Origin: Moniliella sp. 'wahieum'
Taxonomy: Eukaryota
DNA length: 64,000 nucleotides
Direction: 5' to 3'
NCBI GenBank assembly: GCA_003971905.1
Contig: RSEE01000057.1
Span: 372,001 to 436,000 of the forward strand
Shown here in pieces: positions 1,684 through 53,756 of this stretch. The position numbers were made by a program, and so were the translations under genes. How positions within the stretch are numbered: position 1 is the first letter of the stretch; each line of letters opens with the position of its first letter. Below the pieces are notes generated by a model, which made no database searches, was not told the origin of the DNA, and saw nothing but the letters and a program-made list of their open reading frames with translations.

Positions 1684-3615
1684 TTAGAGGGGCACAGAAG
1701 GCGGCGACGGAGTCGGGGTCAGATCCGGGGCCAGAGAGGCCCGGCATAGGACACCCAGGAGAAGGTTCGTAAAAGACGAATAGGTTAGCCGTGTCGCGTG
1801 GTGAGCGGTGATGGGCAGGACGCAGCCGGTCTTAAAATGGGGGAGGGACAACCCCCCGGAGGGGCAACCATGCATCAGGACACCAAAAGTTGAAGTACAT
1901 TGGTGCCCGGTTTCAGGAAGCCAAAAATGGATTGTCCCTCCCATCCATATGTCCGACGCTGTCCTTGGCCTTCATGCAGGTGCAAGGGGGGGTGGGTCAG
2001 AAGTCCCTGTTTCCGGGGCGGACCGAATCAGAATGATAGTAGGACGAGGTGGATTGGTCCGGCATGATGGGGGGGAACCGGGCGGTGCTAGTACTGTGGG
2101 GCGGGTTGGTAGAGTAGTACGATCCAGCGCCTATAAACGGCAGGGAAGAAGCCTGAGAGGCGAGAGGAGGAACCTGCAATCCCGGTTCAGCTGAGGGGGG
2201 CAACAAGCTGGACGAACCATAGCCCGAGTCGGAAGGGTAGTATCCCCACTGTGTTGGACGGGGCCGAGGTGTGGGAAAGCGGGGGGCAAGGGACCCATGG
2301 CTTCCCATTCCACCATTGCCTAACCCAAACGGGCCATAGCGAACGGAAGGGCTGGCCAACGAGCCACTCGACACGTTGGACGGGGAGGACGGTCCAAGGC
2401 GGTCGAGGAGCCGTGGTAGGACATGGAGGCGGAGCGGGTCGGATTCGGTTCTACCTTGATCCGATGGTCGTTGGTCGGCGGAAGAGGAGTGGTATGAAGC
2501 GGTTGGGAGGAGACGAAGCAGTGTTCGTTTCAGTGTCCGACCGGCTGCGCGGTTTGTAGGGACGCTTGCTGTGCTGGGACCGAGCACGAGGATGAAGGAC
2601 GGTGTTGAAATGGTTCTTGATCCGGTTGTCGGGTCGTCCAGGCAGATGGCGGGCCATTTCGGACCACCGGGATCCGAGGCGCTTGTACATATCAAGAATC
2701 TTGGCGTTCTCTTCATCGGTAAAGGGGTTCTTGTTGATGGTAGGGTCCGCATGGTTGTTCCACCGCTCGCGACACTGCTTGGCAGTGCGGGTGCCAAGAC
2801 GCTCCGACACTACCGCCCACTTATCCACTCCAACCTCTTGAACTGTTGCGAGCAACTGGGCATCTTCTGGCTTGCTCCATTGCCCTCGGTTTGAGGTGGG
2901 ACGGCACAAGGTGCGCCAGCGCGACGAACAGGCCACCTTGTCAAACGGACCATCCGGGAACGCTGTCTCGGCAATCCTTGCCCACGACTTGATAGAGGGA
3001 GAGTTGGTGGTAGAGCGGGGCGGATCCCACTGGCCTCGTCGACCGCCTGGCGCTCCATGTGCATCTTGACGGCTGACTCGAGGCGCTCATCGTCCTCCTT
3101 GGTCCAACCCTTCTTGGTCCGCGGCTCGGGGGGCGCGGGGCGGCAAAGCCGAGCCTGACGCACTCCTGGCGCGACTCCCGGCGCGACATGCCGATGGCAT
3201 TCCCGACGCGACTGTCGACGCGGCTCCGGATGGCGTGTAGCGGGTCGACCAGCTCGAGTCCACAAGTGGTTTGGCGAGCAGAGCACTGGCGGACGAGGGA
3301 TCAGCCGGGGCGGGGTACGGCATGCCCTTGGGAAGCGAGGGCAGAACTGGGCCGGTCCGACTGGGATAGGCGGCCGGAGGGGCGGGATGGGGCTCATAGG
3401 CAGGGGCGGGAGGAACAAGGTGGGAGGTATGGGGCGCAAGTGGGTCATGCGGCGTAGGGTGGGAGGCGATGGGTTGATCGACGGGGGCGGTGCGGCAAAG
3501 GAGCCGTCCATGGGGGGGGAGACAGAGACGAGCCGCGGGGGGGTTCACTGACGGGCGGGTCATGCATGTAGCCGGGATAGGCACCGTAATAGCCTCCCGC
3601 TGGGTGGTCTTGCAT
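1684..3615 (-). CDS. Myb-family transcription factor with three Myb repeats (R1R2R3); Pro/Ser-rich N- and C-terminal regions; frameshifted, ends approximate
   Basis: ORF 2451-2936 gives RGQWSKPEDAQL...KQCRERWNNHADPTINKNPFTDEEN...RWSEMARHLPGRPDNRIKNHFN (R2,R3). Upstream KKGWTKEDDERL plus, after a frameshift, KSWARIAETAFP..KVACSSRWRTL forms R1. Confidence 0.85.
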
Positions 3616-4749
3616 CTGCAACTGGTCGAGGGAGAGGCAGCGGCGCGTGGGCCCAGGCCGGTCAGCGGAGGGGAGGCAGGGTGGGGATGGGACGAGGAGG
3701 GAACGCACCGTTGGTGGTGCTCAAAGGAGACAGCAGAGGGGTGGGTGAGGGCGCACGGGAGGGGAGGGAGGCGGGTTGCGGTTGCGGCTGCGGTTGCGGC
3801 GGCGGAATGTGGAAATGGCAGAGGGGGGCCAGGGGGAGCCGGATGGTGGTGGCAGGGAAGAGGAAATATGGGGCGGGGTGCGGTAGGTGTGGCTCGAAGC
3901 GGGAGAAAAGGGTGCAGGGGTGTGGGATGGTCGGGAGCAGGTGGGCAGCGGCGAGGGGGCGCGTCGGGTGGGTGTTGTGTGCGTAACAAACAGACCTCTC
4001 GGCCTGCTGCTCCTGCTCCTGGCGGCGACACACTGGGCTGCGTTCCACGTTACCCGCGCAGGACCGGCTGAGTCGAGTGCGGTGGGTGCGCTGTGCCTCT
4101 GCGATCTCGGATCCCAGGGCGCCAGGCGGCAGGCCCTAGTCCGGCCAGGACCGCGGCTGGTTGCGGGCATCAGCGGGCAGCCTGGGAGTGGCGAGGCCAG
4201 CGCCCAACTGAATCCGACAAAACAAACCACGCCCCCAGTCACTGGTCACGGGTCAGATCGAGATGGGCAGCAAGGGCGCCATGGCCGGCGCGAGCTACGC
4301 GGCAGCCTGGGGGCAGGCGGCCTCGCTTGGGCGCTTGCGGCGGGGGAGGGGCAACAACGAGGCGGAGGCAGCAGCGTGCATCACCCATCCGCCCTCGCCT
4401 CCCGTACCAGTAAGGCAGCCCGCCGCACAGGCCGCCAGCGTCACACGTCAGAGCGCGCGTCAGACAGCACGCCACGATGCGTGACTAGTGACTAGCGACT
4501 AGCCACACGGATGTGCGACTCCTTGGCCGACGATCGATGATAATGATTGATGATCGATTGGCAGTACGCGTTACGCATTTGCGCACTTGGGCATTGTATG
4601 GAGTACTCAGTACTGAGTCTCAGCACTTGGTACTTACCGGACTTACCACTGATCACTGATTCCTGTTCCTCGATGTCGATGGGTGCACGGCGACGTTAAA
4701 AAGGCCGGGGGAGCCTGCTGCTGACCGTCTGGGATTCTGAGCGCGCTAC

Positions 4750-4788
4750 GTGTCAGACTCACGCCGTGCTAGGGGGCGAGTCTGACAC
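4750..4788. repeat. 11-bp perfect inverted repeat with 17-nt spacer, flanked by TAC direct repeats
   Basis: GTGTCAGACTC (4750-4760) and GAGTCTGACAC (4778-4788); TAC lies immediately on both sides. Confidence 0.6.
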
Positions 4789-6868
4789 TACGATCTAAGC
4801 ACGGCGCGGCTGCTGAGCGCTGAGCAGCTGGCCAGGGGCCTGCGGCCAGGCCATGATCGATGATCAATGGTTAGGGGTAGCACGTAGTAACTAGTGACAC
4901 TATTGGTGATACAGGGTCGCGGGGGTTCCATGCCACATGCAGCGTGTGACATGTCACGCGTCACGCGTCACGCGTCACGCTCGTCACATGGGGCCTCAAA
5001 ACTGGACAAAAGCATGGTGCATGGGCGGACGCGCTTCCTTCAAGCTGCAAGCTTCCGAGCTTCAGCGCGCTTTCCTTTCTTCCAATTGATAGGCGTTGTG
5101 CCTGTCATGTCATCATGTCAGCATGCACGTATCACGCAGCATAATATGTGCGCGTGACGCGTGACCGGTCACCGGCAGGCAGCCCAGACGCCGAGATCTG
5201 AGGGTTTGACAGCTATTGTATTCCGTCCCTACTGTCTCTCTCTCTTCTCCTTTCCTTCTTCCTTTTTTCTTCCCTTTCTTCCCTAGTCCCTGACCTTTTC
5301 TCTCCCGCCCCGCCCTGGCTTTTGTATGTACGGCTGTATGGAACGCAGGTTGCGTGGCGTTGATGTTGGTGACTGGTAACGTGGTAACGCGTAACGCGTA
5401 ACGTGCGGGCTCGGCCTCAACTCAAGCGTCAAGAAGTCTCAACGGGCCAGCGCCATTGGCAATCATTAATCATTTTAAATCAATTGCACGACATACCGCT
5501 GCGGGCGGTGGCAGGCGGTAGCCCTTCGGTGGCACCAAGAAGGATTTTTGGAGTCAACTAAAGGGCTAGATGACTGTGCCCCCGGCACAAGACCAGAGAA
5601 AACGTAGGACCGATCCTCGCAACGTCCGGTCTCTCGTCTCTGCTGCTCGATGTTCCATGGGCCATGTGGTGTGTACCACATGCACCCGGTGCCCCGCAGA
5701 CATGCTCCAAGCGCAGAAGCAGCTCCGCTTCCCCCGCATCACCTGGGAAGCATCGATTATGGGTTAACGCGTAACGTTTATCGTTTAACGCGTTACGCGC
5801 TACGCGTTAACGTTTTCGTTATTTCGCATTTAGCCGAATAGGCGACCTTTCTTCGGGGAGGCCCTGGGAGGCCGCCACTCGCCGGTCACCGGTCAACCCG
5901 TGAATGTCGTGAACTCCCGTGACGCGTGACGCGTGAACCGTTCAGCCTGGGCGCCTCAGCTTTTCATCATTGATCACCCACTGTTAGTCATTGAATCATG
6001 AATCACCGGTCACCGTCATCAAGTCATCAAAGTCATCGCGTTGGCGCGTCTGTGACAGAAGGCTGTGTGGCAAAGGAAAAGCAACAGCGGCAACAACTTG
6101 CAGCAGTAGGCCGCAGCTCGGATATACACCAGGCGGGGTACCAGAGGCAGGTACGGGTGCATACTGGAGGGAGGTACGAAGGCTACGTATTGATTGAAAA
6201 AGTGCATGCACCCCGTTTCCAGGCACGGGGGCACAACATGCAGAATTGCAGCAAGCCAGGACGGGGCCACTAGCTACCAGCCATCGGCCACATCGGCGCA
6301 TCCGCCACCATCTTTCCCGCATTCGCTGCCACATTCCGCCAGCCGTGTTCCACCTTTCCACGCTGTGCGAGCATGGCCGGCGGTTGACACCATGTGGGCT
6401 GGCCCGTTCCCGCGTATTCGGCCCCCTCGGTTCCGACCGCATCATCTACCCTGAAAACGTCCTCGATGTCGATGCGGTCGATCAAAGGACAGATGCTGGG
6501 AGGCCTCTCAACTTCACCGGTCACCGGTCACCAGGCTCTAGAGGCCGGAGACCAAAGGTCGGAATGTCCTGAACGTTGAAACGTTGACTACCCTTGCGAT
6601 GTCATATTTTTTCCATCAAGTCAATTGAAGCTTCGCAACTTGAAGCTTGAAGCTTGACTAGCAAGTGATTAATGATCAGTGACTAGTGACATGTGACACA
6701 AGGCCTGCGCTTGGTGCTTGGCAGGCAACCGGGCCGGGAGCGGGCGTTGGCAGACTACTAATACTCACTTGGGTGGGTCAGACATACATAGGGTCAACCT
6801 TTGTTAAGCAGCCGCTGCGTAGGGCTTGCCAGGGGCTGCTCCACCTCGGTTGGGTGTGGTCTCAACGA

Positions 6869-6900
6869 GCGGCAAAAGGTGTTGGCGGCAAAAGGTGTTG
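6869..6900. repeat. 16-bp tandem duplication
   Basis: GCGGCAAAAGGTGTTG twice in tandem. Confidence 0.8.
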
Positions 6901-9703
6901 GACGACCCATCGACTCCTCTCTGCTAAGGATGGTTGATGATCGGTGATTAATATGCAAGGTGCATCATATGGATGGTGCAGGTGAAGCATGCATGATGCA
7001 TGATGCCTGCATTGCTGACCGGTGACCTGCAGCAGTAAACAGATGTTAAACGGCATCGATCTTCCTCCAAGCTCCTAGGCCTCTACTAAGCCCTAAGGCC
7101 TAAGGCTGAGTGTTACGACGGTGACTGGCTTCACCGATCGCGGGGCACGTCCGGCCTCACTAGTCCCGAGGCTCCGCGGGCTCCAAAGACTGCTGGTGCG
7201 CCTAAGCCAACGACTAGCAGCCTTCTCCTGTAGCCCTCGTCTGCTTCCTACCACCCCCGCAATCGATCGCTTACGCTACTGTCCTAAACGCTTCCGCATC
7301 CATTCCAGTCTCCATAGGCGGGTGGACCAGGACGGCGCTACCTCCGGCCCATGGCCTAGACCGAAGGCCCAAGTCGATGACCGAATCGATACCATCCAAA
7401 GTCTTTCCAGCCTTCTCTGCTTGGCGCTTACGGCATCGGATCCCACCCCTCCGGTAAACGGTAACCGGTAACCTCTCGACGGTACATACCTATCCGTCGC
7501 TGTGGAGTGAGCGGTGACCGGTGATTAATGATTAATGACTGCATCATGCATCACGCGTCATCCAGACACTAGTCACTAGTCACTAGTCACATGCGCACAT
7601 GTCACACTAGCTAGTCCCTAAAACAGCCCTCAGCTAGTCAGCTAGTTAGAGATCGTCAGACCAGGTCAAACCGCCCCAGCAGGCCCCAGCTGGGTCCGTC
7701 GGCACGCCACTCGTCTGCGCGGGGACGTTCCTTGCCGTCGAGCCGATCGCGTGTGGAGGTGCGCGTGCAGGATGCAGGATGCATGATGTATGATCGATCT
7801 ATGGTCCATGGTCGACGTTCTCTACCTCTGCTGCGTGGACACGAAGACCATGTCGGCTGCAGAAAAAAGTGGCGCCTGACACATCCGATACGTTCCCATA
7901 TCGGTACGCGTTACACGCGTTACACGCGTTACACACACGTTACCCGTTGCCACGTTCTCGTAGGGTACGCGGTACGCGTTTAGCCCTTCGCGGCTCCCAG
8001 CTGTCTTGCTACCCATGCAACAAGAACAGGCGAGGGAAAGCTTCGGGAATCGAGTTGCTTCCCAAATAACGCAAAAAAAAAAAAAAAAAAAACTTGTCTG
8101 ATGTGGACTTGCCACCGAACTGAGGGTTGAACGTGTTGAGTACGTTGAACGTTGACCATGTGCACCTCCGACACCAAAACCCTCCTCACTGCTCTCGACC
8201 CTGCGGGGCTGACCGATTCAGTTACGCGGGTAAACTGCAACCGAAAAAATTAACCCGCAGGGAATATTCATGTGTCGGCAGCCGAAACGGCCCCCTATGC
8301 TCTGCCGAAAAGAGCCAAAGCAGCGCATGCCGCATGCCACACAAGTCACCACGCCAAAATCGTGTCCATGCCCAATGTGAGACGCCCTTACGTGTACGCA
8401 CGTCGAGCATCCATCGTCTCTCTCGGTACCTACCGTCTCTATTATCTCATCGAATCAATTGATCGTCGGGCATCTCCAGCAACATCAAACCCCGACCAAG
8501 AGAGATGCGAGTCACATGTCACATGTCACAACGAGATCACACGCCACCCTCTCGAATCGATGTCAGCGATGCCACAGAACCAACGAAGAACCATTTGTAT
8601 TTTGGATCGATAACATGTACTGCCTGCTGGCTTTACCGGTTACCGGCCTTACCGGTTACCACGGGTAAATAGTACGGTACCCTACGGCCTGGACCATGGT
8701 CCTTCAAGTTGAAGCGTCTCACGCTGGACTTTGAACTGACTTGAATAAGCTTCACGCATCAGCTTCATGCCATGCGGAGTAGCACCCGCGAGTATAATCA
8801 AACGCTTCGACGACAATTCAACGTTCATTCCACCCATTCCAGACCCAAGCGACAAACCGAACGAGAAGGCGCGAAGCGACAACACCAAACGCACTGATGT
8901 GGGAGGGTCGATGATCGACGATGGAGATCTCTCGATGATCGCACAGAGAAACCAAACGAGAAAACGACAGAGACATGCACGTACAAACGCGTCATGTATG
9001 GGCCTTTGGCATTTTGGTTAGGGTTATTGCTAGTTGGGAAACGGGGTTCATCGAGACAATCACAAAAGAACGGGACAGTATGGCAGACGTTTCCCTCTGC
9101 GTCTTTGGCAGGCATGGCAGGCACACTCAGCCGTGCCCACCGCCCCGCGCCCACCGTTCTTTCTCTCGTGCAATCAACAGCGCAATACCCGAGACGAGGC
9201 GGGCGCACAAGCATCTCGGTGTATACGCAAATGACTGGCCCCCCTCAGCCCCAGCCTGGACTTGTGGGTGGGAAGACCAAAGGCACTGGGGCGCGATCGA
9301 GGTGAGAGGCGTGTGAGGAAAGTCTGACGCCCTGAGGGCCAACCATAGAGAGAGAGAGGGTGCCAACATGAGGAGAAACAAGTCTATAATATCAAGCGAC
9401 GGAACCAAAACGAAAGAGACAAAAGAACTTGCATAGAGAACCGTGGGTCTTTACTGAGACCTGCATCCTAAGGCTAAAAAAGGTTCAAAGGCACAAAAGT
9501 TTGGAGCCAGAAACAACAGTGCAAGGCGTACCATGTCAACCCGCCCGGAAAAAGACCGTGACCGACTTCCATACGAAGCATGGCAACGAGCGGAAAAGAC
9601 ACAAGGTGGGAGCGAGGGGGGGTGGCGTACAAGAAGGGAAGGGACTGTTGGGGGATATAGATAAAGAGAGACGTGCTGGCAAAGCAGGGAAAAATTTAGC
9701 TGG

Positions 9704-25641: not shown

Positions 25642-27461
25642 TCTGTTCCGACTCCTTTTTCTTCTTCAATTGAACGTGACTCCCTAGCCTCTTCTGTAGC
25701 TCATGAGCAATGCATCAATACCTGCTCTCTTTTGCCTTTAACAACCCAGCGGGGGCGCAGGAGATGAGACGTACAGACTACCCAGTGATGGGACCCGGAG
25801 CGTTCGGAGAATCAGAAATGGAGGTGAGCCACACGTTGCGCGACACATGGGAACGCAAGAGGCGCAGAGCATGTACCGGAAGGTGGTGCATGAGAGCACC
25901 GCGACGCCTTTGGAACGCCTGGAGAAGGAGCTGCATCGGCTGCTGGAACAAGCGGAATGCACAACAACGTCAAGTACCACGGGCTCACCCAGAGCTGTTT
26001 TCCCCCCTGATTTTGACGACGCAAGAGGATACTATGGAACCAAGACAGCGGGGAAGATGCTTGGGCACTGGAAGGATTTGACTACTGACTCTCAATGGTG
26101 ATGGCTCACCTCTCGGATGTCTACTCCACGTTCATCCTTATCCACACGCGTTTCCTCGGGTATGGGAACGGATAGGGGGCACCAGTGTGTCCAGATCTCC
26201 TGTGGCGATCCTCCAGGTTCCTTAAGCGGGGTTGGCGCTACCATCATATGCAAGATGAGAATGGGTCGGTTTAGGCGTAGCGTTTCCCTACCCCAGCCTT
26301 AAGCTCTGTCAATGATATGGATGCCGAGTAGAAAAAAGGGGCGGAAAACAGGACGGAGGTAGACCACACACCTGGGGAGGCCTGGTGGGGCCTGACACCT
26401 GACATGTGACATGCATGACAGGAGGAGAATTCAGGGACATGTGCAGAGATAACAACGATTATTATGTCTTTTGACGTCTCTCTCCTAGTCTACACAGTAG
26501 TCTCCATATGGTTTTGTGCGCACACCACAAAACGAGAAGAGTTGCAACGTTTTGTTCATGTTGGTTAGTACTAGTACCTAGTTCTCATTGTTAGACTCTC
26601 CTGAGGCGGCCTGAGATTGAGAGGCTTCTGTTGGCCTGAGGCTTGAGGAGCCTGAGGCGTAACGCGCGTAACGCGTAAGGCCTGAGGGGCCTGACACCCC
26701 TGGTGGTCCTGATAAGGATGCCTCTGAGATACCGCGCGTACCTGGCAGAGGTCCTATCTACTAGCCTGTCCTAATAACTTGTGTGTGGGGGAGAAAGTTG
26801 AAACCCCCCCAGAAAGAGCCAGGGTATATGGCTTTCAATCCGGTGTATAGTGCGCTGATGGGGGCTGTTGATGCGCTGATATACGCGGTATAGTATTGGG
26901 GGTGTGGACTGATACACTGATGGGACTGATAGTTCGAGCAAGCGGGGCTACGCGCGGCTACGAGAGCCCCTCTTCCGCTCAGAGCTTCAGCCTTCAAGAG
27001 CTTCAAGCTTCAGCGCTTCAGCGCCCTCGGGCCGCCTCCTGTGGGCGGCCGCGTCGGGATCCACCTGGGCAGGGTTTACTATGTTTACTCATTAGCCGCA
27101 GAGAGTCTGCAAGTTTTGAACGCCCAACTATCGATACTGGCTCAGCGCCACATGTCTTGTAGATATCGAGCTCACTGGCCCCGCCCCAAGGAATGGTCAC
27201 CGGTCAGAGACCAGAAGTCAGCCCTGTAAGGCTATCATGATCGTGATCTCAGAGGTTCCCCGTGCCACCAACATGGATCACACTGGCCGATTGTCTGAAC
27301 GCACATAAGACATCCAAACACACTCATTGCAACTCCCGCTGGCCCTGATCGGACTGCTTTCCCCACTCGGGTTGGTCTCTCTCCTTCACCTCTTTTTTCC
27401 TGCTCCTCCATCACCTGCAACTCCACCGCGCCTTCGCCACTTCCCCCTCTTCCGTTTCATT

Positions 27462-30141: not shown

Positions 30142-30858
30142 GCAAAGCTCCACAGATGGAGATGCCTCATTTTCGTTCTGCTTGACTTCTTTTCTTCTCC
30201 AAAAAGATGCTTCAGAGTAAAATAGGAGCGCATTTCGTTGTGTGTGTTTATCGCCGCCTGGTTCTGTGTCTCGTCTTTCCACAGCCTGCCAAGCTGTGGC
30301 GTAATTTTCCCTTCCTCCCTCTTCCCTCTTCCTCTTTCCACCTCTACCTTCTGTTCGGTACGTTTTGTTATTCATCTCTCCCTTGCTCTCTGTATATGGG
30401 AGAGATGCATGATCGAGATCCTTGATGATTCCTTGAACGGATCTCTCATACTACCTCTTGCGATGAATTCGATGACTGGGTTCACGACGGCAGATATATA
30501 TACGCGTTGACTATCCAGGTGCAAGCAATTTTATGTGCTTAGTACTTAGTGCAGATCCGCTCTTTCCACTGCTGGCCGTTGATGACGTTGATGCAATGCA
30601 AATCTGACGCACTTTCGGCAGGAGCTGGGGATAGTACGCTTCGCCCTTGCTTCCACACCACAGATAGCTCTATTCGTTTATTTCGGGGACGCACCCCACA
30701 TTGTGGTCACGAGGCGTTTGAAATGTTGCATACCAGCCATTATTCGAACGGAGGCTGGCGCGATAGGAGTGCGATAGCCACGATCGCTCCCCTCCCCCTA
30801 ACCACCACCACCACATTTCCTCCCATCCGAACGCATGGGTCCCCTCTCCCTTCCAGCG

Positions 30859-37423: not shown

Positions 37424-40400
37424 TTAATTAGCATGGTACATGACGAGGGCGAGAAGCGCCGAGCGGATCCAAACGCCGTTCTTGACCTGGCGCCAGTAGG
37501 CCGCGTGTTCCGACAAGTCCACCTCCTCTGCCAACTCGTTAACACGGGGCAGCGGGTGCAGGACAATCATACTGGGCTTGGCACGGGTCAGGACATCATT
37601 GTTGACCACGTAGGCATCCTTGACAGCCTCGTACTCGGCCGGGTTGGTGAAGCGCTCCTTCTGCACCCGGGTGACATACAGCACATCCGTGGTCGGCAGT
37701 ACCTCCTGGAGATCCGTCGTCTCGTATTGCGCTACCCCACGCCGTGCTGCCTCTGCCTTCACCTCCCGCGGCATAGACAGCGCCACAGGCGAAACATAGT
37801 TGAGAGTCACACCGTACAGCGCCAGGAGGCGCACCAGGCTGTGTGTCGTCCGTCCATTCTTGAGGTCGCCCAGCAACGTGACCGTCAACCCGCTAACAGT
37901 ACCGAGCTCTTCGCGAATGGTAAAGACGTCCAGCAGCGCCTGAGTTGGGTGCTCTCCAACACCATCGCCGGCGTTGATGATGGGCACCTGCGAGGCCCGC
38001 GCCGCCTTCTGGGCCGAGCCCACCGCAGGGTGGCGCATGACGATAGCGTCGGTGTAGGAACCGAGCGTGCGTACCGTGTCCTCCAGCGTTTCGCCTTTGG
38101 CCACGGATGAGGTTTGACTCTTGACCGGGAGCACTTGGCCACCCAGACGGTACATGGCTGCCTCGAACGAGGACGAGGTGCGGGTTGATTCTTCGTAGAA
38201 GAGCGTGCACAGCACACGGTTGCGCAGAATGTTGAGCATCCCGTTCCGCTCCACACCCATCCGAATCTCCTGGGCCACCGAGAACAAGCTGTGGAGATCG
38301 TCGCGGGTAAACTGCTTCACCGAGAGAACATGGCGGCGGTTGAACGATGGGTGCGCCAGCTGCAACGCCGAAGCCGGGCTCAACTCGCGGGCGGGCTTTA
38401 GCGCAATCGGCTGCACCAGCTCACTCGCTGTATCTAACACTGGGGGCAGCGACACCTCGCTCTCAGCAATAGACACCCGACGAACGTGACGCGTAACATT
38501 GGATGCACCAAACGAGGCCGACACGTTCTGACCCACAGGGCCATGCGACACACTCTCACCATCAACAAAGACGGTCTTGCCCTTGTTCACCACACGAGAA
38601 ACGGCACCAATGGTGGCGCGCGTTGCTAGTGGCGACCAAACCTTGCCCGCTGGAAGCGGAGCGGCACGGTCAACATCCACCTGCACTTCCGCATCCAGCG
38701 GGGCGTTGAATCCAAAGATGTCGCGCGGGGCCTTGAAGAGCTTGTCGAAATGTCTTCCAGACGCAGGCGTTTCTGGTTGACTGCGTCGAGGAGAGAGAAG
38801 ATGCATACTCTCACGACACCCGACGGGCCGAGACGGAGTGGCCAAGATGGACACCCATAAAGTAGGGCAAGCTACCCACGGAGAGCACGTCAATGTTTGC
38901 CAGGTTCTCCACAGTGCGACCTGATCCGCCTCCGTCGGCAACACGTCGCCTTGGGGTAGCGCACGGTTGAAGAACAAAGCATAGATAGGGACGTCCACTG
39001 TCACCTTGAGCCCCTTGTTCTTGGCGGGAGTGTGATGAGGTTCAGGTGGCCGGATCAGTCAAGCCGGTAACGTGGATGGCACGTGCTGCAAGCTGGCCAA
39101 GAGAAGGATCGAGGCCAAGTCGTTGCCCTTGGCGCTCGTCACCAGAAGACGGTTCGTAGGCCACTCGGAAACATTGCTGCCACCGTAGCCAGTGGGATGG
39201 CCTCTCCGTTCGGATAAGAGGTCACAACGCACAGAGTGCGGGTACGCTCCGACAGTGCCGCCACTTCGTCTGGTTGGGCCGTGGCGGGCACGGCAAGCGC
39301 CAGCGACACATCGCAATAGCCGCTCCGGCCAACTTGCCCTCAATGATCGATAGAGTGTGCTCGTCTTGGATCGAGGTGGTGGTACCCAAGGCGAAAGGTG
39401 AACCGTGGTAAACCCGGCAGAGAGCGAGGCCTTGGTCAACTCAGCCAGCTCACGAGCGCCCCTTGGGGTCGGCAACGTCGGGTAGGAAGGCTCCAACATT
39501 GAACAAACCAGGGAACGTGTGGGTTTGGTGCGACGTTTTGAAGTCGATGCTCGAGATGGGGAAGTCCGAGCCAGCACGGCGGTAACGCGCCAGAGCTTCA
39601 ATGTAGAGTTGGCGTTCTTGACGTTGGTGATAAGCGGAATAGACCGGTCAATTGCCAGGCGACGGGCTTTGTACCCAATCGAAGTGAACGTAGGAGGACG
39701 ACGGTATTGTTCTTACTGGGAGCGAGATGAAGAGAGAAGAGACGCCTTGCGACAAGTGCGAAAGCACGAGTAGTTCGACATCTTGTTGTCGTCTCCTTCC
39801 AGTCCTTATCCTCGGGCAAGGCCTCGAGCTGGATGATGGGGATACCTTGCTCAGAGTAGAAGTCGGCTGTACCACTCGAGCCGTAGAGAGTGTAGCCCAG
39901 CTGGTGCAGCGTCCGTACGGACTGGACCAGCTCCTGCTTCTCGCTGAAAGATCCCACCGACAAGAGGACATTCTTTGTCGGTAATTTGAGGCCCGATGCG
40001 ATCATGCCCTTCAGGTACGCCTCGTACTTGTCGTGGCCGAAACAAGCAACCTCACCCGTTGAGGCCATCTCCACACCCAAGATCGGGTCGGCACCAGCCA
40101 AACGGCTGAACGAAAACTGCGGCACCTTGACACCCACGTACTCTTTAGGTAGGGTGATCTTGGGATACGGCTCAATGGGCAAGCCCAGCATCACTTCCGT
40201 GGCCATCTCGATCGCGTCGACACCTGTGACCTTGGAGACGAAGGGAAGGAGCGGGCAGCACGGACATTGCACTCATCACCTTAATCTCGTTGTTCTTAGC
40301 AATGAACTGGATGTTAAAGGGTCCTGTGACGTGGAGCGATTCGCAATCTTAGCCGTCGCCGCAGTGATGCGCCGCACCGTCTCAGGATCAAGATCCTGAG

Positions 40401-43400
40401 GAGGGAGGATAAGAGTAGCGTCGCCCGAGTGCACACCAGCATTTTCGACGTGCTCCGAGATGTAGTGCATGACCAGCTTGCCATCGCGAGCGACGGCATC
40501 CATCTCAATCTCCTTGGCACCCTCAAGGTACTTGGAAATGACGACCGGATGTTCTCGGTTAACGGCGGCGGCTTGGGAGAGGTAAGAGCTAAGGTCATCC
40601 GAAGAGTAAACCACGTTCATCGCTGCCCCAGACAGGACATATGACGGGCGGACCAAAACGGGATAGCCGAAGCGCTCACATGCAGAGTAGGCGTCATCGT
40701 ACGACGTGAGTTCCTTCCACATCGGCTGGTCCACACCAAGTTTGTCGAGCATACGCGAGAATTTGTACCGGTTCTCAGCCATGTCAATGTTCTCAGGCGA
40801 AGTGCCGAGCACCTTGACGTCTTGACGATGCAGGGGGAGCGCGATGTTGTTAGGGACCTGTCCGCCCATGGAGATAATCACGCCGCTCGACTGCTCAAGA
40901 TCATAGATGTCCAAGACCGTCTCGAGACTAATCTCGTCGAAATACAAGCGGTCCGCCTCGTCATAGTCTGTTGACACCGTCTCAGGATTGTAGTTGATCA
41001 TGACAGTCTTGTACCCGCCGCGTAGTGCGAACAGCACGCACAGCGCACCAGTCAAACTCAACACTGGAACCGATCCGGTATACACCGGAGCCAAGCACAA
41101 TGATCCCTTTGTCGTTGAAGTCCACATCGTGCTCGGTGGCATGATAGGTGGTGTAGAGGTAATTGGTATATGCCGGAAATTCGGCAGCGACTGTGTCGAT
41201 CTGTTTAACGAAGGGCATGATCCCCGTCTCCTTACGAACGCGGCGGACTGCAAGCTCAGTGCTGCCCATGCACTTAGCAAGCAGCTTGTCAGAAAAGCCG
41301 AGCTGCTTACCCGCCCGCAACTGGTCAGGGCTGAGCTGCGACAGTGTCTGCTTTGTGAACCATTGAGCAGCCTTAGTAATGCGCTCAAGCTTGTGAAGGA
41401 ACCAACGGTCAATCGAAGTGGCATCGTGAATCTTGTCAACCGAGTAGCCCTTGCCAAAAGCGTTGGCAATCGCAAAGATGCGACGGTCCGTGGGAACAGT
41501 AAGCTCTTGATCAATCTCATCGTCCTTGACCAAGTCGTTCTAAAAGAGAATGATAGGCGGGGGAAAAGTCAGTAATCAGGCCCAAAATAGATAGGATGAA
41601 AGGCAGCGCAAGCTTGAGGGATACGTACCGTGGCAAAGCCAGGGAAGGATGGGTCGATTGAACGAATTGCACGTGAATCGCTTCTTCAAAGGTGCGACCG
41701 ATTGACATACCTCGCCAACACTTCATCGACGAGCCCAGTGTGGACGAGACGCGAACAAACTTGCGCAGATCCCAGCGAGGGAACTTGCAGACCACATAGT
41801 CAAGTGACGGCTCAAAGCACGCCGAGGTTTTTTGGGTTACTGAATTGCGGATCTCGTTGAGGGGGATATTGAGACCCAACTTGGCAGCGATAAAGGCGAG
41901 CGGGTAGCCGGTGGCCTTGGACGCCAGTGCGACGAACGTGACAGACGGGCGTTGACCTCAATAATGCAGTACTCCTTGCTGTGAGGGTTGAGCGCATACT
42001 GGATTTGCACTCACCTACCACGCCCAAGTGGCGAATAACGTTGACAGCAGTGGTACGAAGCATGTTGTAATCCTCATCAGACAACGTTTGGCTCGGCGCG
42101 ACAACGATTGAGTCGCCGGTGTGAATTCCAAGTGGGTCAAAGTTCTCCATGTTGCAGACGGTGATGCAGTTGTCCTGCGTCACGAACAACTTCGTACTCA
42201 ACCTCCTTCCACCGCGCATCGACTTCTCCACCAGTACTTGCGGAGTTGGCAAACGCAGCCGTGCAGAGCTTCTGCAGCTCATCCACATTAGAGGCAAACC
42301 CGCTACCCAACCCACCAAGGGCAAATGCCGCACGAACAATCACTGGGAAGCCAATCTGCTTGGAAGCCGCCAGAGCCTCCTCCCAAGTCGTGGCCGAGGC
42401 CGAGGGAGCAACCTTCTCGTTAATTTGGGCCAGAGCCTTAGCGAATAGGTCACGATCTTCTGTCGTGATGATCGTGTCAATCGGAGTTCCAAGAATCGTG
42501 ACCCCCAAGGCAGTAGTTCATCCTTAATGGCAATACCCACGTTGAGGGCCGTCTGTCCACCAAATGTGACCGCAATACCGTCAGGCCGCTCGTGCTTGAT
42601 GACCTTCAAGACAAATTCGGGTGTGACTGGAACGAAATAAACCTTGTCGGCCAAACCGGCACTCGTTTGGATCGTAGCAATGTTGGGGTTGATAAGGACA
42701 GTGTAGATACCCTCCTCCTTGAAAGCCTTGATCGCCTGACTGCCCGAGTAGTCAAACTCTCCAGCCTGACCAATCGACAGACCGCCAGATCCAAGCACAA
42801 GAACCTTGCGCACATTACACGAGGGTGTGCCGCTTGGTTGTCCGCTTTCTTGCCCCGACAAAGGGAACGGGGGGAAGGGTCGGGGCAGGCGTCTTGGAAG
42901 CCGCCTTGACCGCGGCACAGTCAACCACGGAGCGGATGAACACATCAAACAGGAACTCCGTGTCGCGCGGGCCAGGAGCAGACTCTGGGTGGAACTGGAC
43001 CGAAAAGAAAGGGCCTGCGATGAGTAGATACCCTCGTTGGAGCCATCATTGGCATTTTGGAAGAGCTCATGCCAGCCATGAGGAAGAGAGTCGACGTTAA
43101 CGGCGTACCCGTGGTTTTGGGAGGTAATGTAACAGCGCCCGCTCAGAACATCAGTGCAGGGGATGTTGGCACCACGGTTACCAAATTTCATCTTTTCCGT
43201 TTTCGCACCTGCAGCGAGCGAAAGAAGTTGATGGCCGAGACAAATACCGAAGATGGGCACCACATCCTCGCCTTTGCGGGCAAGGAGTTTTTCAACGGTC
43301 TTAATAGTCGCACCGCACATGGTGGGGTCACCGGGCCGTTCGAAATAAACACACCATCAAAGGGCTCAGACTCCTGTGTCGTTACATCATAGTCCCACGG

Positions 43401-44426
43401 CACCACCTTGAGCTCAACCCCACGAGAGGTGAAGCAGCGAATCTGGTTGCGCTTCATACCCACGTCAATGGCAATAATCCGAAGAGGACGGCCGGAGGGG
43501 TGCAAAAGTTGACTGATAGCCGTACCTTTGGCATCGTTGGTGGCCGTTGTAGCCAGGGTAAAAAACTGAGGCTTGGTGAGGGAGACCTTGGCCACTAAGT
43601 TGGTGGCGTTGTTGTCGGTGTAGGGAATTTGCTCAAACTCGACGCGCCAAAGAGCATCAGCGTCACCAGCGAGGCCGGTCACAGGCTTGGCAGCAGGCGT
43701 TAGCGCAGGCGAGTCGGCAGCAATGTCTGCCTTGAGGGAACGCAGCGGATCTTTGGGAGAGGACGAAAAGTTCTGCCGAGCCAGCAGTTTGCCCAGCAGC
43801 GATCCACGGTCACGGATCTTTTGTGTAATAGCACGGGTGTCGATACCATAAATAGCAGGCACACCATTCTCGGTGAGCCACTGGCCGAGGCTCGACTGGG
43901 CCAAAAAGTGGGAGAAGTCCTCGCTGTAGTAGGCCACGACAGACCAGCGACGTGAATGCGGGATGACTCGAAGGGCAAGGCAAGCAGTTTTTGCGTCGCG
44001 GCATCTACTTCCTTGCGCGAAGGGACACCGTAGTTCCCCACAAGGGGGAATGTGAGCACAAGAATCTGGCCCTCGTACGAAGGATCGGTGAGGGACTCGA
44101 CGTAACCAACCATGCCTGGCCAAATAAGAGCAATTAGTACGGGCAGCAAGCAAAGCCAGAGATCGAAAGCAAAATGATGCACATACCTGTTTGGAAGACG
44201 CACTCGCCGCTGACGCTCTTAGAGGGAGCACCAAAGCTGAAGCCTCGGAAAGCAGTGCCGTCGGCAAGCTCCAAGACCATGTCCCCAGCATCGGCCGCAT
44301 GGGGAGCGTAAGGAGCCGGACGGGTGGCAGGCGGAGCAGGCCGGCAGTGAGCGTCGCCATGGCGGGCGCCGCTGTAGTTGCCGGTGCCGGCGCGGGAGCA
44401 ACGGCAGGAAGAGTGGAGGGGCTCAT
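37424..44426 (-). CDS. URA2: Multifunctional pyrimidine biosynthesis protein: glutamine amidotransferase, CPSase, inactive DHOase-like domain and ATCase; many frameshifts
   Basis: [119 protein letters not shown]. Introns at 44116-44186 and 41540-41628. The DHO-like region reads PGLFNVGAF and lacks the HxH motif. Confidence 0.97.
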
Positions 44427-45258
44427 GGCAAGTAGAGAGGGTAACCGGCGCGGTGGGGATGGAGGGCTTGTGAGGGGGCAACCTTCCTGGCAGGCCAAGT
44501 GTCCTACCAGGAGAGAGAGGAAAGAAGGCACGTCTCGCAACTCACTGGCTGTCCATTTATTACACGGAAAAAAACTCATCCGTCGGATGGGCAGAGCGGA
44601 ATTGGGGGAAAGCGGAGGCATGGCGCCAGTGTTCTCTTGTCCCGCCGGTCTCGCCTTGCTGCTGTGTGACGTGTGATGCATGTGATATCACATGTGACTG
44701 CCACATGTCAACCCGCCCAATGCCCCTGCGCAGGGGCAGTGTCACAGCCGAGGTGTGCTCAGCATAGCGCCAGCGTGTTGCCGCCTTTCCAACTTTAATG
44801 ACAGTAACCAACAAGAGAAGAGGAGGATCCTTTTATACACCCGCTGTGGGGTAGCAGAAACATTAGGACACGAAAGCTACTAAAGGCCCTACCTTCCTAC
44901 TTGCATTGCCACGCGCCACTCGCTACCTGTCGCCGACCGCTCGCCCCCAGCCCACTCGCTTCCCATAAACACTAGTGCAGCAAAAGTTGACATACCAATG
45001 TCATTAGTATGCGACACAAAAAGTCCCTGCCTGTTCCATATATGCCAGTCGCCCCCCACTGCCGCACCAACATCGTTCTCCGCTGACGGTACACTTTTAA
45101 TCAGCATCATCACCGCCTCCTCATAAGCGTTTGGCAGTCAGGATAGTATGTCCCGCCTGCCACCAGCATGGGCCCACAAAAGAAATGGTCATTATCATTA
45201 TACCAAAGCGATATGTGCACTGTGAGGCCCAACATCCATACGAGCGGCCCTGCCACGT

Positions 45259-49585: not shown

Positions 49586-52500
49586 ATGCCGTCCCCGCCG
49601 TACCCCGTCCTGTCGACCGACGAGGCCCGCCCTGTGCGTGGCCTCCCCATCCGCGGCGTCCGTGAGCGCCGCGTAGGCGAGTTTGTCGGCGGGCAGTACG
49701 CCGACTACAACCTCTCGTCCCTCCTCTTCGAAGCACGCACCGACGACAAGGCTTACATCCGTCTTTCCCGCTGGATCCTGAGCCCTGGCTCCACCCTAAC
49801 CCAGAGGGAAAGGGCGGCGATGTCATCAACAAGCCCCCTTTCTCTGAAGCGGTCAAGCAGACGTACAGCGACACCAAGAAGGGCACCACCTTTGGTCCCA
49901 GCTGGACCAACCACTGGGTCAAGCTGTCGTTGACAGTGCCCCCGCAGTGGGCTCATCGCGAGCCTGGCTCCGTCCAACTCGAGTTCGACCCGGATGCGAG
50001 GCGATGATCTTTGACACCAAGGGTCTCCCCCTGCAAGGCATTACCGGTGGCAACGCGGCCAACCGTCGCGTCGACTTCCCCCTGACAGAGGCCATGTTGG
50101 AGCCGGGCACGGTCACTACGTTTTATATCGAGATCACCGCCAACGCCATGTTTGGTCTTCCTAGCGTGGGTAATGGTGGCGACCCTGACCCAAACCGGTA
50201 CTTTAAGTTGCTGTCGGCCGACCTGGTACTCAAGCGGCTGGAGGCCTGGCGCCTCATGTGGGACTTTAGTCTTCTGCGCGGTGCCGTCGATTGGGTGGAC
50301 CGTGACACAGTCCTACAAAACAAGGCTTTGTGGGTAGCCAACGAGATTCAGAACACCTTCCGCCACTCGGATGTGACTTCGATTGCACGCTGTCGGAAAC
50401 TAGCTCAGGAGGTGCTGGGATCCAAATGGGATGCCAAGCCCGACGGGGTCTGGGAGGAGCCGACTAGCACCAAAACCACCGTGTGGGCTATGGGGCACTG
50501 CCATATCGATTCGTGCTGGCTCTGGCCCAAGAAAGTGACCGAGCAAAAGGTTGCTCGCTCTGGGCTACACAGCTTTCTCTGATGGAGCGCTACCCCGAAC
50601 ACCGCTTTGTTGCCTCGCAGGCGGCGCAATTTGACTGGCTCGAGCGACTTTACCCTTCTCTGTTTGAGAAGCTCAAAGGCTTTATCAGTTCGGGTCAGTT
50701 CTTGCCCATTGGGGGCACGTGGATTGAGAACGATGCCAACATCCCCTCGGGTGAGGCTTTTGTTCGCCAATTTATCCACGGCCAGCGCTTCTTCCTATCG
50801 CGCTTTGGTCAGCGGTGCAAAATCTTCTGGCTGCCCGACACATTTGGTTACAATGCCCAGATTCCGCAATTGGCTCGCTCGGCGGGACTCGACTACTTTT
50901 TCACTCAAAAGTTAAGCTGGAACAACATTAACCACTTCCCGCATAACACGGTCATGTGGGAGGGTCTGGATGGTAGCCAGATCATCACCCATTTTTCGCC
51001 AGTGGAAAACTACGACTCCATGTGCCGTCTGGACGACATCACCAAGTGCATCAAGAACAGTATGTATTCTTTTAAAGTTATTTCATCATTTGTTCGCGAT
51101 ACTGACCTCGGGGGTGCAGACGGCAACTTGGACGTTCAGCCTAACGGGCTTCTCCTCTTTGGTTATGGCGATGGTGGTGGCGGTCCTACCGAGACCCATA
51201 TCCAAAATCTTCGCCGGGCTCGAGCAGCGCATAATAATGGGTACACGGATATCCCCAAGATTAAGCTGGCACATTCCGTGCAAGACTTTTACGATGAGGT
51301 GCTGCGCGTGACGGACGGGGGGAAGCGCCTGCCTACTTGGCAGGGCGACCTCTACCTCGAGTTCCACCGGGGCGTGTACACGTCGCATGGGAGCATCAAG
51401 CGATGGAACCGCAAGTTGGAGATTAAGTTGCACAACGTCGAGTGGGCAGCTACGCTCGCGTTGGCTAGCCCCACTTACGAGTATCCTAAGAAGACACTGG
51501 ATGAACTTTGGGAGGGGCTACTCTTCAATCAGTTCCATGACATTTTGCCGGGTTCCTCAATCCGCATGGTCTATGAGGATGCAGAGAACGATTATGCTTC
51601 GATCGATAAAAGGGCAGACAAGCTGCTGGCATCCGCTCAAGACGTCTTGTTTGCCACCTCGGCCTTGAGTACCGGCCTGTCGATGGAGACCCTCTCGCTC
51701 GGCGACGGAGCAGGCTCAATTGTTGCCCTTAACACACTGGCCATCCCGCGCAATGAACTTGTTGCTGTTCCTCTTCACAAGTACCCGGGAGTACAAGCGG
51801 CGATCCAGATGGGTGGGGCGCAACTTGTTTCGACCCCGCAGAATCAGATGGCCCTGGTCCCCATGCACGACGCCGATGGGACTGGAGTGGCGTCCTTTTC
51901 GCTCGGTCATGCGCAACAATTGGCTGCCAAGGTCCATCGCAATGGGGCGACGGCCTTCCATGACGTCCAGTCCGAAAGCTATGTGCTAAGCAACGACGTG
52001 CTCAAGGTGGTTGTCAAGAGTGGCCGGATCTCGTCGGTGTACGACCAAGTGCTGAAGCGGGAGTTGCTGCGCCCGGCCAGACGGCAGGGCTTTCGATTGC
52101 GGAGGACTACCCTCCCTCGTACGATGCTTGGGAGACAGAGGTGTATGCGCTGGACACACAGGAGCCGATTGCGTTTGACTCGGTCGCAGTGCACACGGAG
52201 CAAGGCCCGTTGCGCGCTTCGTTGGTGGCGCAGGCCCGCTTTGGGCAGAGCAAGGTGAGCGTCAAAATGTCGCTTGATGCAAGTGCGATGCAGATGACGT
52301 CCAAGGGTCGTACGCCGTTGGTTCTGGACTTTGAGGTAGACTGGCAAGAAAAGCACCGATTCCTTCGGTTTGAGGTACCGACCAACTTGGTGGCCGACAA
52401 TGCCGCGTACGAGACGCAGTTTGGCATTACCCACCGGCCCACGGGCCGCAACACAAGTTGGGATGCAGCCAAGTTTGAAGTATGCGCTCACCGCTTTGTC

Positions 52501-53071
52501 GATTTGTCCGAGGCAGGCTATGGAGTTGCGCTACTGTCCGAGTCCAAGTACGGCTTTTCGGTAGAGGGGGGCACGATGCGGGCTTCGCTGCTCAAGGCAG
52601 GTACCTATCCGGATGCTCACCAAGACGAGGGGAAGCACATCTTTTCCTTGGCGGTACTGCCACATGTGGGGCCGATGGAGGACCCTGCGAGCGGGGTGAT
52701 TCACGCGGCGCGCGCGTTCAACAACCCGTTGGTTCCTTCGCATTCTGCCAACTCAAGCCTCGCCAGCGGCTTGGGTCTGCACCTCGAATCGGACACGGGC
52801 ACTGTCGTGCTCGATACCATCAAACGTGCTGAAGCTGACTTCTCCTACCACCACACACCTGCCTCCGGCAAGAAGACTGTGGTGGCTCGCTTCTATGAAG
52901 CGGCGGGTGGCCACGCACACACCAGTTTGTATGCGTGGAGCCGGAGTGCTGAAAGCGTCAACTGCGTCAATTCTGGAGGATACAGAATCGGAGCTGGCGC
53001 CGTACCATGGCGGGTACCAGCTTTCCTTCCGCCCATACGAGGTGAAGACGGTCGTTTTCGAACTGGCCTAA
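49586..53071 (+). CDS. AMS1: Glycoside hydrolase family 38 alpha-mannosidase; frameshifted
   Basis: FGPSWTNHW, GHCHIDSCWLWP, FWLPDTFGY, FFTQKLSWN, FGYGDGGGGP, LYLEFHRG, NQFHDILPGS, NTSWDAAKFEV. Intron at 51060-51119. Confidence 0.96.
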
Positions 53072-53756
53072 CACCTTGGGATACGTTGTGGACCCCACAC
53101 AGACAATATATGAAGTTTGCTTGTTGGAGAGCGGGACTCATCCATTGCGGATGGGTTTGTTTTGCGATGATTGCCAGATAGTATTGCGTTCAGCGTACGT
53201 TCATCAACCCACGTCGCCCGTCGCCGCCCCCGGCCCTTCTCACAGCCACAACTATTACCACGGCAACAAGCATTATGCAAGCAGACCAGAACATCGCGTC
53301 CTCTGACTGCGGGGGCTGTCAACTGGGCAACCAACACCACCCAGGGTAATTGGCCAGCCACTACATGGATGAGTAGGCCATGGGGGTCCAGGAATTGAAG
53401 CTTGACGCGACAAGGAGAGCTTGAACGGGTGGGATTGACATATTGACAAGCGGGCCAGTCCTTGCCAGCCCACACCCGCTCTCTCGTCACGCGTCACGTG
53501 TCATGCATCAGCAGGCATCTAGTGCGTTGCTGGAGTTGGCTTCGACGACTGGAAAGCGGAACCGGCCGTGGGGTGGCGGAATGCACTGATCAGGCAATCG
53601 CTTGGGCGTGATTGATGATCGATGATTGATGACGAAGAAGAGAGCTATAATTAGGGCAGCGGCAATGGCATCGGCTAAGCGCATCATCAGCACCGCCGGC
53701 CCACTCACCCACCCACACCACCCACTCCGCAACCCGCCTCCCCGTCCGTGCCCACC

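Follow-up and report, generated by a model that had tools for sequence, protein, structure and literature searches.

The DNA analysed here is a 64,000-nucleotide window of Moniliella sp. 'wahieum' (C57:372001-436000), taken from an assembly of 69.5 Mb in 223 contigs. Our subject is a class of short palindromic repeats in this window, of the form TNA-N4-TNA, together with a transposon family with CTCACTG ends found elsewhere in the genome. The host is evidently a smut-related basidiomycete, to judge by the URA2-like protein of the window, whose best named match is Tilletiaria anomala (74%), followed by Malassezia and Tilletia. The repeats crowd an intergenic region at 4481-8660, which forms the upstream side of a Myb-domain gene and lies downstream of a glyoxal oxidase-like gene. 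Across this region nothing in Rfam reached the gathering score. A diverged second copy of the region, 89% identical, is present on contig C4, and other stretches of the sequence pair with contigs C67 and C16; the partner of C57 is C67 up to ~315.7 kb and C4 beyond. Substitutions between the two genome copies amount to 8666 in 314,144 aligned columns (2.8%). The assembly is thus made of two subgenomes ~2.8% apart by substitution, and this divergence, with C57 pairing first with C67 and then with C4, indicates a hybrid or a highly heterozygous diploid.

The first-pass annotation of the window had described the repeats as arrays in a 7-bp register, in which TNA alternates with any 4-bp palindrome. 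All 18 motif examples that it listed were recovered in place or right beside it, and its chained examples at 7515-7538 and 7544-7560 are exact. The features needed below are the following (window coordinates; for brevity, sites with a gained unit are called scars).

2454-3086, minus strand: exon with a Myb DNA-binding domain (PF00249, E 3e-29); the upstream side of its gene is the repeat-rich region 4481-8660.
4481-8660, no strand: intergenic hot region with 39 same-N TNA-palindrome-TNA units, 21 of the 39 identical on C4.
4482-4491, plus strand: unit TGA-CTAG-TGA, then CT (the right-hand flank copy).
4632-4647, plus strand: +9 scar, the 7-bp duplication ACTTACC in full with two mirror bases, GG, between.
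4947-4977, plus strand: four-unit chain TGA-CATG-TCA-(CGCG-TCA)3.
5155-5171, plus strand: mixed chain TGA-CGCG-TGA-CCGG-TCA.
5385-5401, plus strand: TAA-CGCG array of two units.
5882-5895, plus strand: CCGG-TCA array; the C4 copy is without one 7-bp unit (plain tandem gain or loss).
5918-5936, plus strand: TGA-CGCG array; the C4 copy is without one unit.
6514-6530, plus strand: TCA-CCGG array; the C4 copy is without one unit.
6641-6696, plus strand: cluster of TGA-AGCT twice, TGA-TTAA-TGA and TGA-CTAG-TGA-CATG-TGA.
6923-6929, plus strand: empty target GC-TAA-GG; on C4 two copies of the 7-mer flank a single mirror base (+8 scar); the site falls outside the clean indel set owing to a nearby 1-bp indel.
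7515-7560, plus strand: mixed chains TGA-CCGG-TGA-TTAA-TGA-TTAA-TGA and TCA-TGCA-TCA-CGCG-TCA.
7573-7589, plus strand: TCA-CTAG array of two units.
7906-7934, plus strand: array of 9-bp period, CG-TTA-CA.CG.CG-TTA-CA; the C4 copy is without one unit.
8512-8528, plus strand: TCA-CATG array of two units.
8633-8658, plus strand: two TTA-CCGG-TTA units.
26640-26650, plus strand, outside the region (C57 398646): empty CT-TGA-GG; C4 reads CT-TGA-AGCT-TGA-GG, a palindrome created anew.
30539-30550, plus strand, outside the region (C57 402544): TTA-GTAC-TTA-GT; C4 has only TTA-GT, a palindrome created anew.

We counted TNA-N4-TNA with the same N on both sides and observed the following. In the region, 39 spacers are palindromic and 17 are not (39/56); for the whole window the numbers are 68 and 59 (68/127). 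The Markov background and the control cores that the annotation had proposed as checks gave far less: simulations of the region (orders 1, 3, 4 and 5; 200 each) had means of 0.18-7.2 and a maximum of 17, and palindromic spacers in the window were 4/51 for ANT, 8/124 for CNG and 6/133 for GNC. One 17-base pattern was found 641 times genome-wide, compared to 2 for its control pattern. Non-redundant sequence totalling 522 kb contains 490 units, distributed over 405 loci; every one of the 16 palindromes is used, and the core is TAA or TTA in 90 of the units. The A-palindrome-T-N type makes up 181 of the 295 perfect heptamer tandems, whereas palindromes starting with T, G and C account for three each. 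The enrichment is therefore not common to all heptamer repeats, a case against which the annotation had cautioned.

In the portions of the literature returned by our searches, no description of this repeat pattern was found, and no paper on the ATTCACG/ATTCGTG arrays that the annotation had mentioned. It ascribed these heptamer arrays to Ustilago intergenic DNA, as a possible relative of the pattern here; parsed as TCA-N4-TCA, their spacers are non-palindromic.

The loci are strongly clustered. No locus occurs in 132 of the 261 2-kb bins, and the top 10% of bins hold 55% of the loci. Within the window, 66 of the 68 units are outside the Pfam-supported coding spans (22.8 kb, containing 910 of the 2585 TNA sites) and only two inside. 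Non-coding location, clustering and a position upstream of the Myb gene would suit sites under selection for binding by a general regulatory factor that reads TNA-N4-TNA, one of the two explanations offered by the annotation. Such sites would hardly use all 16 palindromes or take their spacer from the flank, as 240 of 288 units do (see below). They would also be expected to be conserved, and we observed no excess conservation: 4.8% of unit bases are substituted (210/4389) vs 4.0% of the neighbouring DNA (2875/72656), a comparison biased towards more change by the choice of units that are perfect in one copy. We regard this option as highly improbable; some arrays may be in secondary regulatory use.

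The assembly, from which alone the units are known here, is rich in one- and two-base indel errors. Relative to their C4 copies, the URA2-like gene (window 37424-44687, a 7.3-kb span) has 42 such indels and the alpha-mannosidase gene (window 50468-53181) has 31. As these errors are common even in essential genes, frameshifts are weak evidence anywhere in the assembly, and its unpolished state means that calls of decayed genes need care. The probability that the units are themselves a sequencing or assembly artefact is, on the other hand, close to negligible: no 7-bp indel occurs in the URA2 or mannosidase spans, units avoid coding spans, 21 of the 39 region units are identical in the C4 copy while others have point decay, and an independent element family has the matching duplication.

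Next, we consider the elementary event, as seen in differences between the two genome copies. The 314,144 aligned columns (314 kb of paired sequence) yielded 4369 indels, and those of length 5, 6, 7, 8 and 9 with clean flanks numbered 23, 23, 54, 12 and 18 (91 of length 7 before this filter). The lengths thus peak at 7 bp, the size of the polymorphic insertions for which the annotation had proposed to compare strains. The TNA rule is followed by 38 of the 54 clean 7-bp indels, compared to 0, 0 and 1 for the control cores. Plain tandem changes make up 13 of the 38; in the other 25 a palindrome arises that is missing from the empty allele, with gains in both genome copies (14 and 11); in 7 of these 25 the other side already carries a 4-base palindrome. 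We assumed the filled allele to be the gain, and a filled allele could revert by slippage.

Longer variants define the duplicated unit. The annotation had proposed an event in which TNAXY becomes TNAXY-Y'X'-TNAXY, a 5-bp duplication with two palindromic nucleotides; the event is visible in 25 of the 54 clean indels, but the duplication is longer. In xyTNAzw-NN-xyTNAzw pairs, plain tandems excluded, NN mirrors one flank in 30/43 cases, compared to 5/32 in controls (binomial p = 6e-18 against 2/16); fillers of a single base tell less (9/17). The underlying duplication is therefore 7 bp, xy-TNA-zw, plus two mirror bases. Among the 288 isolated units, 240 have a spacer copied from the flank (11/12 in region 4481-8660; controls 8/21, 12/52 and 18/60). 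The palindromes are even, and their centre lies at the edge of the 7-bp duplication, always 2 nt from TNA. Odd 3-nt spacers are at control level (115/392 vs 25-27%). A tyrosine-recombinase or protelomerase model was rejected by reasoning, as its palindrome would centre on N.

Replication template switching or slippage could produce the 13 of 38 fitting indels that are plain tandem gains or losses, and unit bases are indeed gapped five times more often than neighbouring bases. As the maker of the palindromes it is very unlikely, because 25 events create a palindrome absent before, the TNA specificity is strict (controls 0-1), the fold-back point is at a fixed 2-nt distance, and the +9 class keeps the 7-mer intact on both sides. 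The annotation's view that ordinary slippage does not explain the arrays holds for their start, which the 25 new palindromes place beyond slippage; to their extension slippage may contribute.

An element with a matching duplication exists in the genome. The end pattern CTCACTG gave 412 matches vs 238 for a control, and a convergent end pair on contig C11 delimits a 4849-bp element with 83-bp terminal inverted repeats (TIRs; 93% complementary) and 11-bp subterminal repeats. With the TIR of this element we found 18 ends genome-wide, namely five ~4.9-kb full copies, one 378-bp miniature inverted-repeat transposable element and six single ends, two of which are one insertion present in both genome copies. 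All 18 ends start with CTCACTG, CACTG beginning at base 3. TNA lies two bases out from 17 of them and, in the 18th, after two extra bases. Ten insertion sites found regardless of flank all fit TNA (background 0.038 per site). A perfect 7-bp xyTNAzw duplication flanks five of the six two-ended copies: GTTGATG (two loci), CATCAAC, GATCATG and GATGATG. The copies differ from each other by only 0.27-0.81% substitutions, against 2.8% between the genome copies, so the family moved recently.

The copies keep only a C-terminal remnant of a tnp2-like transposase (profile positions 356-670, best E 2e-10; hhalign 87%). [quoted passage not shown] Pfam had no match in 9/9 element frames tested, a homologue search with the element reading frame found none, and no exact copy of the TIR turned up in metagenome contigs. 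A scan of the examined sequence for target-site duplications with TIRs returned nothing for any core. Judged by its sequence, the family is young but non-autonomous. Two further observations concern these copies. The element (L113 541-5389) carries four TNA-palindrome-TNA units, common to all five copies. One element end is present in both genome copies (C8 and C23; L124 vs L125), and C8 has two extra bases that mirror the flank; an aborted one-ended excision would give such bases, and a 2-base sequencing error may equally have done so.

The aforementioned data lead us to conclude that the pattern is real and mostly explained, as a variant of the hairpin-type excision footprint that we link to a CACTA-like family whose ends are shifted and whose target measures 7 bp. 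The units are probably footprints that built up as a cut-and-paste transposon lineage excised itself again and again; this lineage would belong to the CACTA/EnSpm (CMCT) group and cut in a shifted geometry. The annotation's other option, the footprint of a hairpin-forming transposase, gains support from the palindromes arising de novo in 25 of the 54 clean 7-bp indels.

The proposed sequence of events is as follows. Insertion at xy-TNA-zw duplicates all seven bases, as observed for the CTCACTG family. Excision would seal each flank as a flush hairpin at the duplication edge, as the constant 2-nt distance between TNA and the palindrome centre suggests. A host nuclease of Pso2/Artemis type would then open the hairpin 2 nt 3' of its tip. 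Pso2 and Artemis are described as cleaving hairpins 2 nt 3' of the apex (PMC3299998), and such a cut by the putative host nuclease, as by Pso2/SNM1 and Artemis, predicts two mirror bases. The products would be self-complementary 4-nt overhangs, zww'z' and y'x'xy, beside TNA. End joining would mostly retain one overhang and drop the other, yielding the observed +7 product TNA-palindrome-TNA; the observed +8 and +9 products, with the whole 7-mer twice, would come from partial joins. At an already scarred site both overhangs match, so a re-hit would add an exact unit, and arrays would grow by this route or by later slippage, the two being indistinguishable. A few elements could thus walk through accessible intergenic DNA, leaving one scar per jump. 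If substitutions are assumed to arise at 1e-9 per base per generation, the ratio of 25 scars to 8666 substitutions translates into ~1e-4 jumps per genome in each generation, an unremarkable rate.

CACTA/EnSpm elements encode a tnp2-type DDE transposase and have TIRs with subterminal repeat arrays; the 83-bp TIR and 11-bp repeats of the CTCACTG family agree with the latter. Two defining features of the group fail: where termini of CACT(A/G) or CAC are expected, 18 of 18 ends are CTCACTG, and where a duplication of 2-3 bp (2-5 bp in CMCT) is expected, five of the six two-ended copies have 7 bp. The family therefore works like CACTA/Transib and is not filed as canonical CACTA; we call it CACTA-like and tie it to the scars as one lineage. 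It resembles CNIRT6 of Cryptococcus neoformans, a CMCT-clade element with CACTG ends and a 3-bp duplication (PMC12810828), in its TIRs with CACTG, its subterminal repeat arrays and probably its tnp2-like remnant, in which an H(3)H motif aligns. Unlike CNIRT6, its ends read CT-CACTG, with two extra bases outside CACTG, and it duplicates 7 bp centred on TNA, compared to 3 bp in CNIRT6 and 2-5 bp in the clade. The relation 7 = 3+2+2 looks as if donor and target cuts had both moved 2 bp outward.

RAG hairpins are flush, and Transib duplicates 5 bp. As in RAG coding joints and Transib, a flank hairpin opened off-centre by a host nuclease would give the even joint palindromes seen here, a likeness of sequence signature only; the differences are the 7-bp TNA-centred duplication and the dominance of one very uniform product. 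Hairpins form on the flanking DNA in the hAT, Transib, RAG and MULE systems (PMC5499845), and CMCT and RAG1 share motifs, CMCT duplications being 2-5 bp (PMC12730594). A PIF/Harbinger element would duplicate 3 bp, whereas here both flanking dinucleotides are duplicated along with TNA. A footprint of Tc1/mariner type would have a constant filler from the element end; the filler here follows the flank, and CT or AG was found in 0/13 non-mirror fillers.

The CTCACTG family and the scars do not, however, agree in their flanks. S-W-TNA-W-S occurs in 8/12 element flanks but in 0/25 new scars and 31/240 isolated scars; its absence from the new scars has p = 0.06 at a background of 10%. A or T stands beside TNA in 22/24 element half-sites compared to 18/50 for new scars (p = 4e-6), and all 12 element cores are TGA or TCA, whereas 90/490 units have TAA or TTA. 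The +9 class is enriched for S-W-TNA-W-S flanks (14/48, p = 3e-4). As the target spectra differ, the sampled family cannot have made all the scars by itself unless residence time depends on the flank. Related families with a broader taste may have made most scars, or elements may be trapped longer at S-W-TNA-W-S flanks.

Further points weigh against the footprint interpretation. In the 314 kb no polymorphic element with a TNA duplication was found, against 25 new scars, and no site has the element in one genome copy and a scar in the other. Among those listed, the large indels between the copies are LTR- (long terminal repeat), SINE-like (short interspersed nuclear element) or unclassified, none with a 7-bp TNA duplication. 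The C11 copy, the one selected on TNA, has non-matching flanks. The five copies share a transposase broken by common frame breaks and without a detectable PF02992 core, and no autonomous copy was found, although diverged ones may have been missed. The empty alleles could also be reversions. Lastly, the available text of the literature searched contained no description of hairpin chemistry for CACTA enzymes, nor of such a hairpin mechanism for the CACTA group as a whole.

The flank mismatch would be accounted for if the scars had been made by an unrelated hAT7- or MULE-like element that duplicates 7 bp, and the CTCACTG family shared its target by coincidence. hAT7 elements with 7-bp duplications occur in rust fungi (PMC12730594), and Ac/Ds and hAT7 resemble the present case in combining a target duplication (7 bp in hAT7, 7-8 bp in the group) with palindromic filler. 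We consider this quite unlikely. In Ac/Ds footprints the palindrome has at its centre the complement of the base that adjoins the element and is hence odd (PMC5873905), while the palindromes observed here are even and odd 3-nt spacers are not enriched; the element found is not hAT-like, and excision of Muta1 is >90% precise (PMC5499845). It would take a strong coincidence for an unrelated family to agree in length, TNA centre and register. A search of the genome for the hAT transposase domain PF05699 gave no match, but it gave none in control genomes either.

Another possibility is that the scars are the work of a host-retained CMCT transposase without TIRs, or of some other nuclease, and that hardly any insertion persists. 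Such an enzyme might act through transient small insertions or through cuts at opposite 7-mer edges on sister chromatids. Scars far outnumber elements (405 loci in 522 kb vs 18 ends genome-wide), and their flank spectrum is broader than that of the element. Two tnp2-like genes without detectable TIRs do exist, on C17/C62 and on C34. The C17/C62 gene, with 108 non-synonymous vs 30 synonymous codon changes, is by all appearances a neutrally evolving fossil. The C34 gene (C34:513-517 kb) is single-copy by tblastn, and 229 columns of the tnp2 profile align to it at 98%; it may be intact, and frameshifts prove little in an assembly with 42 small indels in the URA2 span. Its upstream DNA has TNA arrays, a full CTCACTG element lies 8 kb away, no TIR was found within 15 kb, and its identity to the element remnant is just 34% across 35 residues. 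We nevertheless judge a host enzyme unlikely: a double-stranded 7-bp copy at both ends arises most simply from insertion and gap filling, real insertions with a 7-bp duplication exist, the C17/C62 gene evolves neutrally, and 25 scars per 8666 substitutions need only modest jump rates. A bolder version, to which we give a small but not trivial chance, is that the scars were written mainly by a host-retained, RAG-like CMCT transposase. The candidate would be the single-copy, TIR-less C34 gene, mobilising defective CTCACTG copies in trans or via short-lived insertions and rewriting promoter regions at tens of thousands of sites, with donor and target cuts both 2 bp outward of the CACTA norm. The fungus would then have a permanent system for writing DNA.

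If the excision-footprint reading is correct, the genome holds a natural, genome-wide record of CACTA-group cutting, in which flush flank hairpins are opened, as for RAG, at 2 nt from the tip. Duplications in the clade, for which 2-5 bp has been published, would then reach 7 bp, with TNA as a defined target. The main heptamer class in promoter-side DNA (181 of 295 tandems) would stem from transposon exits and not from insertions, and the scars would date and map past jumps and accessible chromatin. Extrapolation from 405 loci in 522 kb gives ~27,000 loci per genome copy.

Other repeats were met in the course of the analysis. The dispersed 230-bp repeat at window 7111-7341 was rejected as a scar-making element; it has TG...CA ends, is ~258 bp in other copies, occurs at no fewer than 38 other places in the genome (at least 38) and has 4-bp duplications in two of the copies read, as a solo LTR would. 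A high-copy repeat of 89 bp, close to the tnp2-like gene on C34, was also rejected, being SINE-like with one fixed end and no TIR; the SINE-like family (L098 4880-4968; L101-L112) is high-copy and young, with one fixed end. Two leads were set aside: the CACGGGCG ends, with no link to TNA in the examined DNA (1/57), and a second candidate pair of ends besides that on C11, which lies on C2 and has no TIR. At window 4751-4787 there is a 37-bp TG...CA insert with a 5-bp CTACG duplication, which the C4 copy is without and which matches the start of the LTR family at L039:3464. Finally, a 5270-bp TG...CA insertion with a CATGG duplication at C4:937921-943190 (L020), missing from C57, is a candidate full-length LTR retrotransposon.

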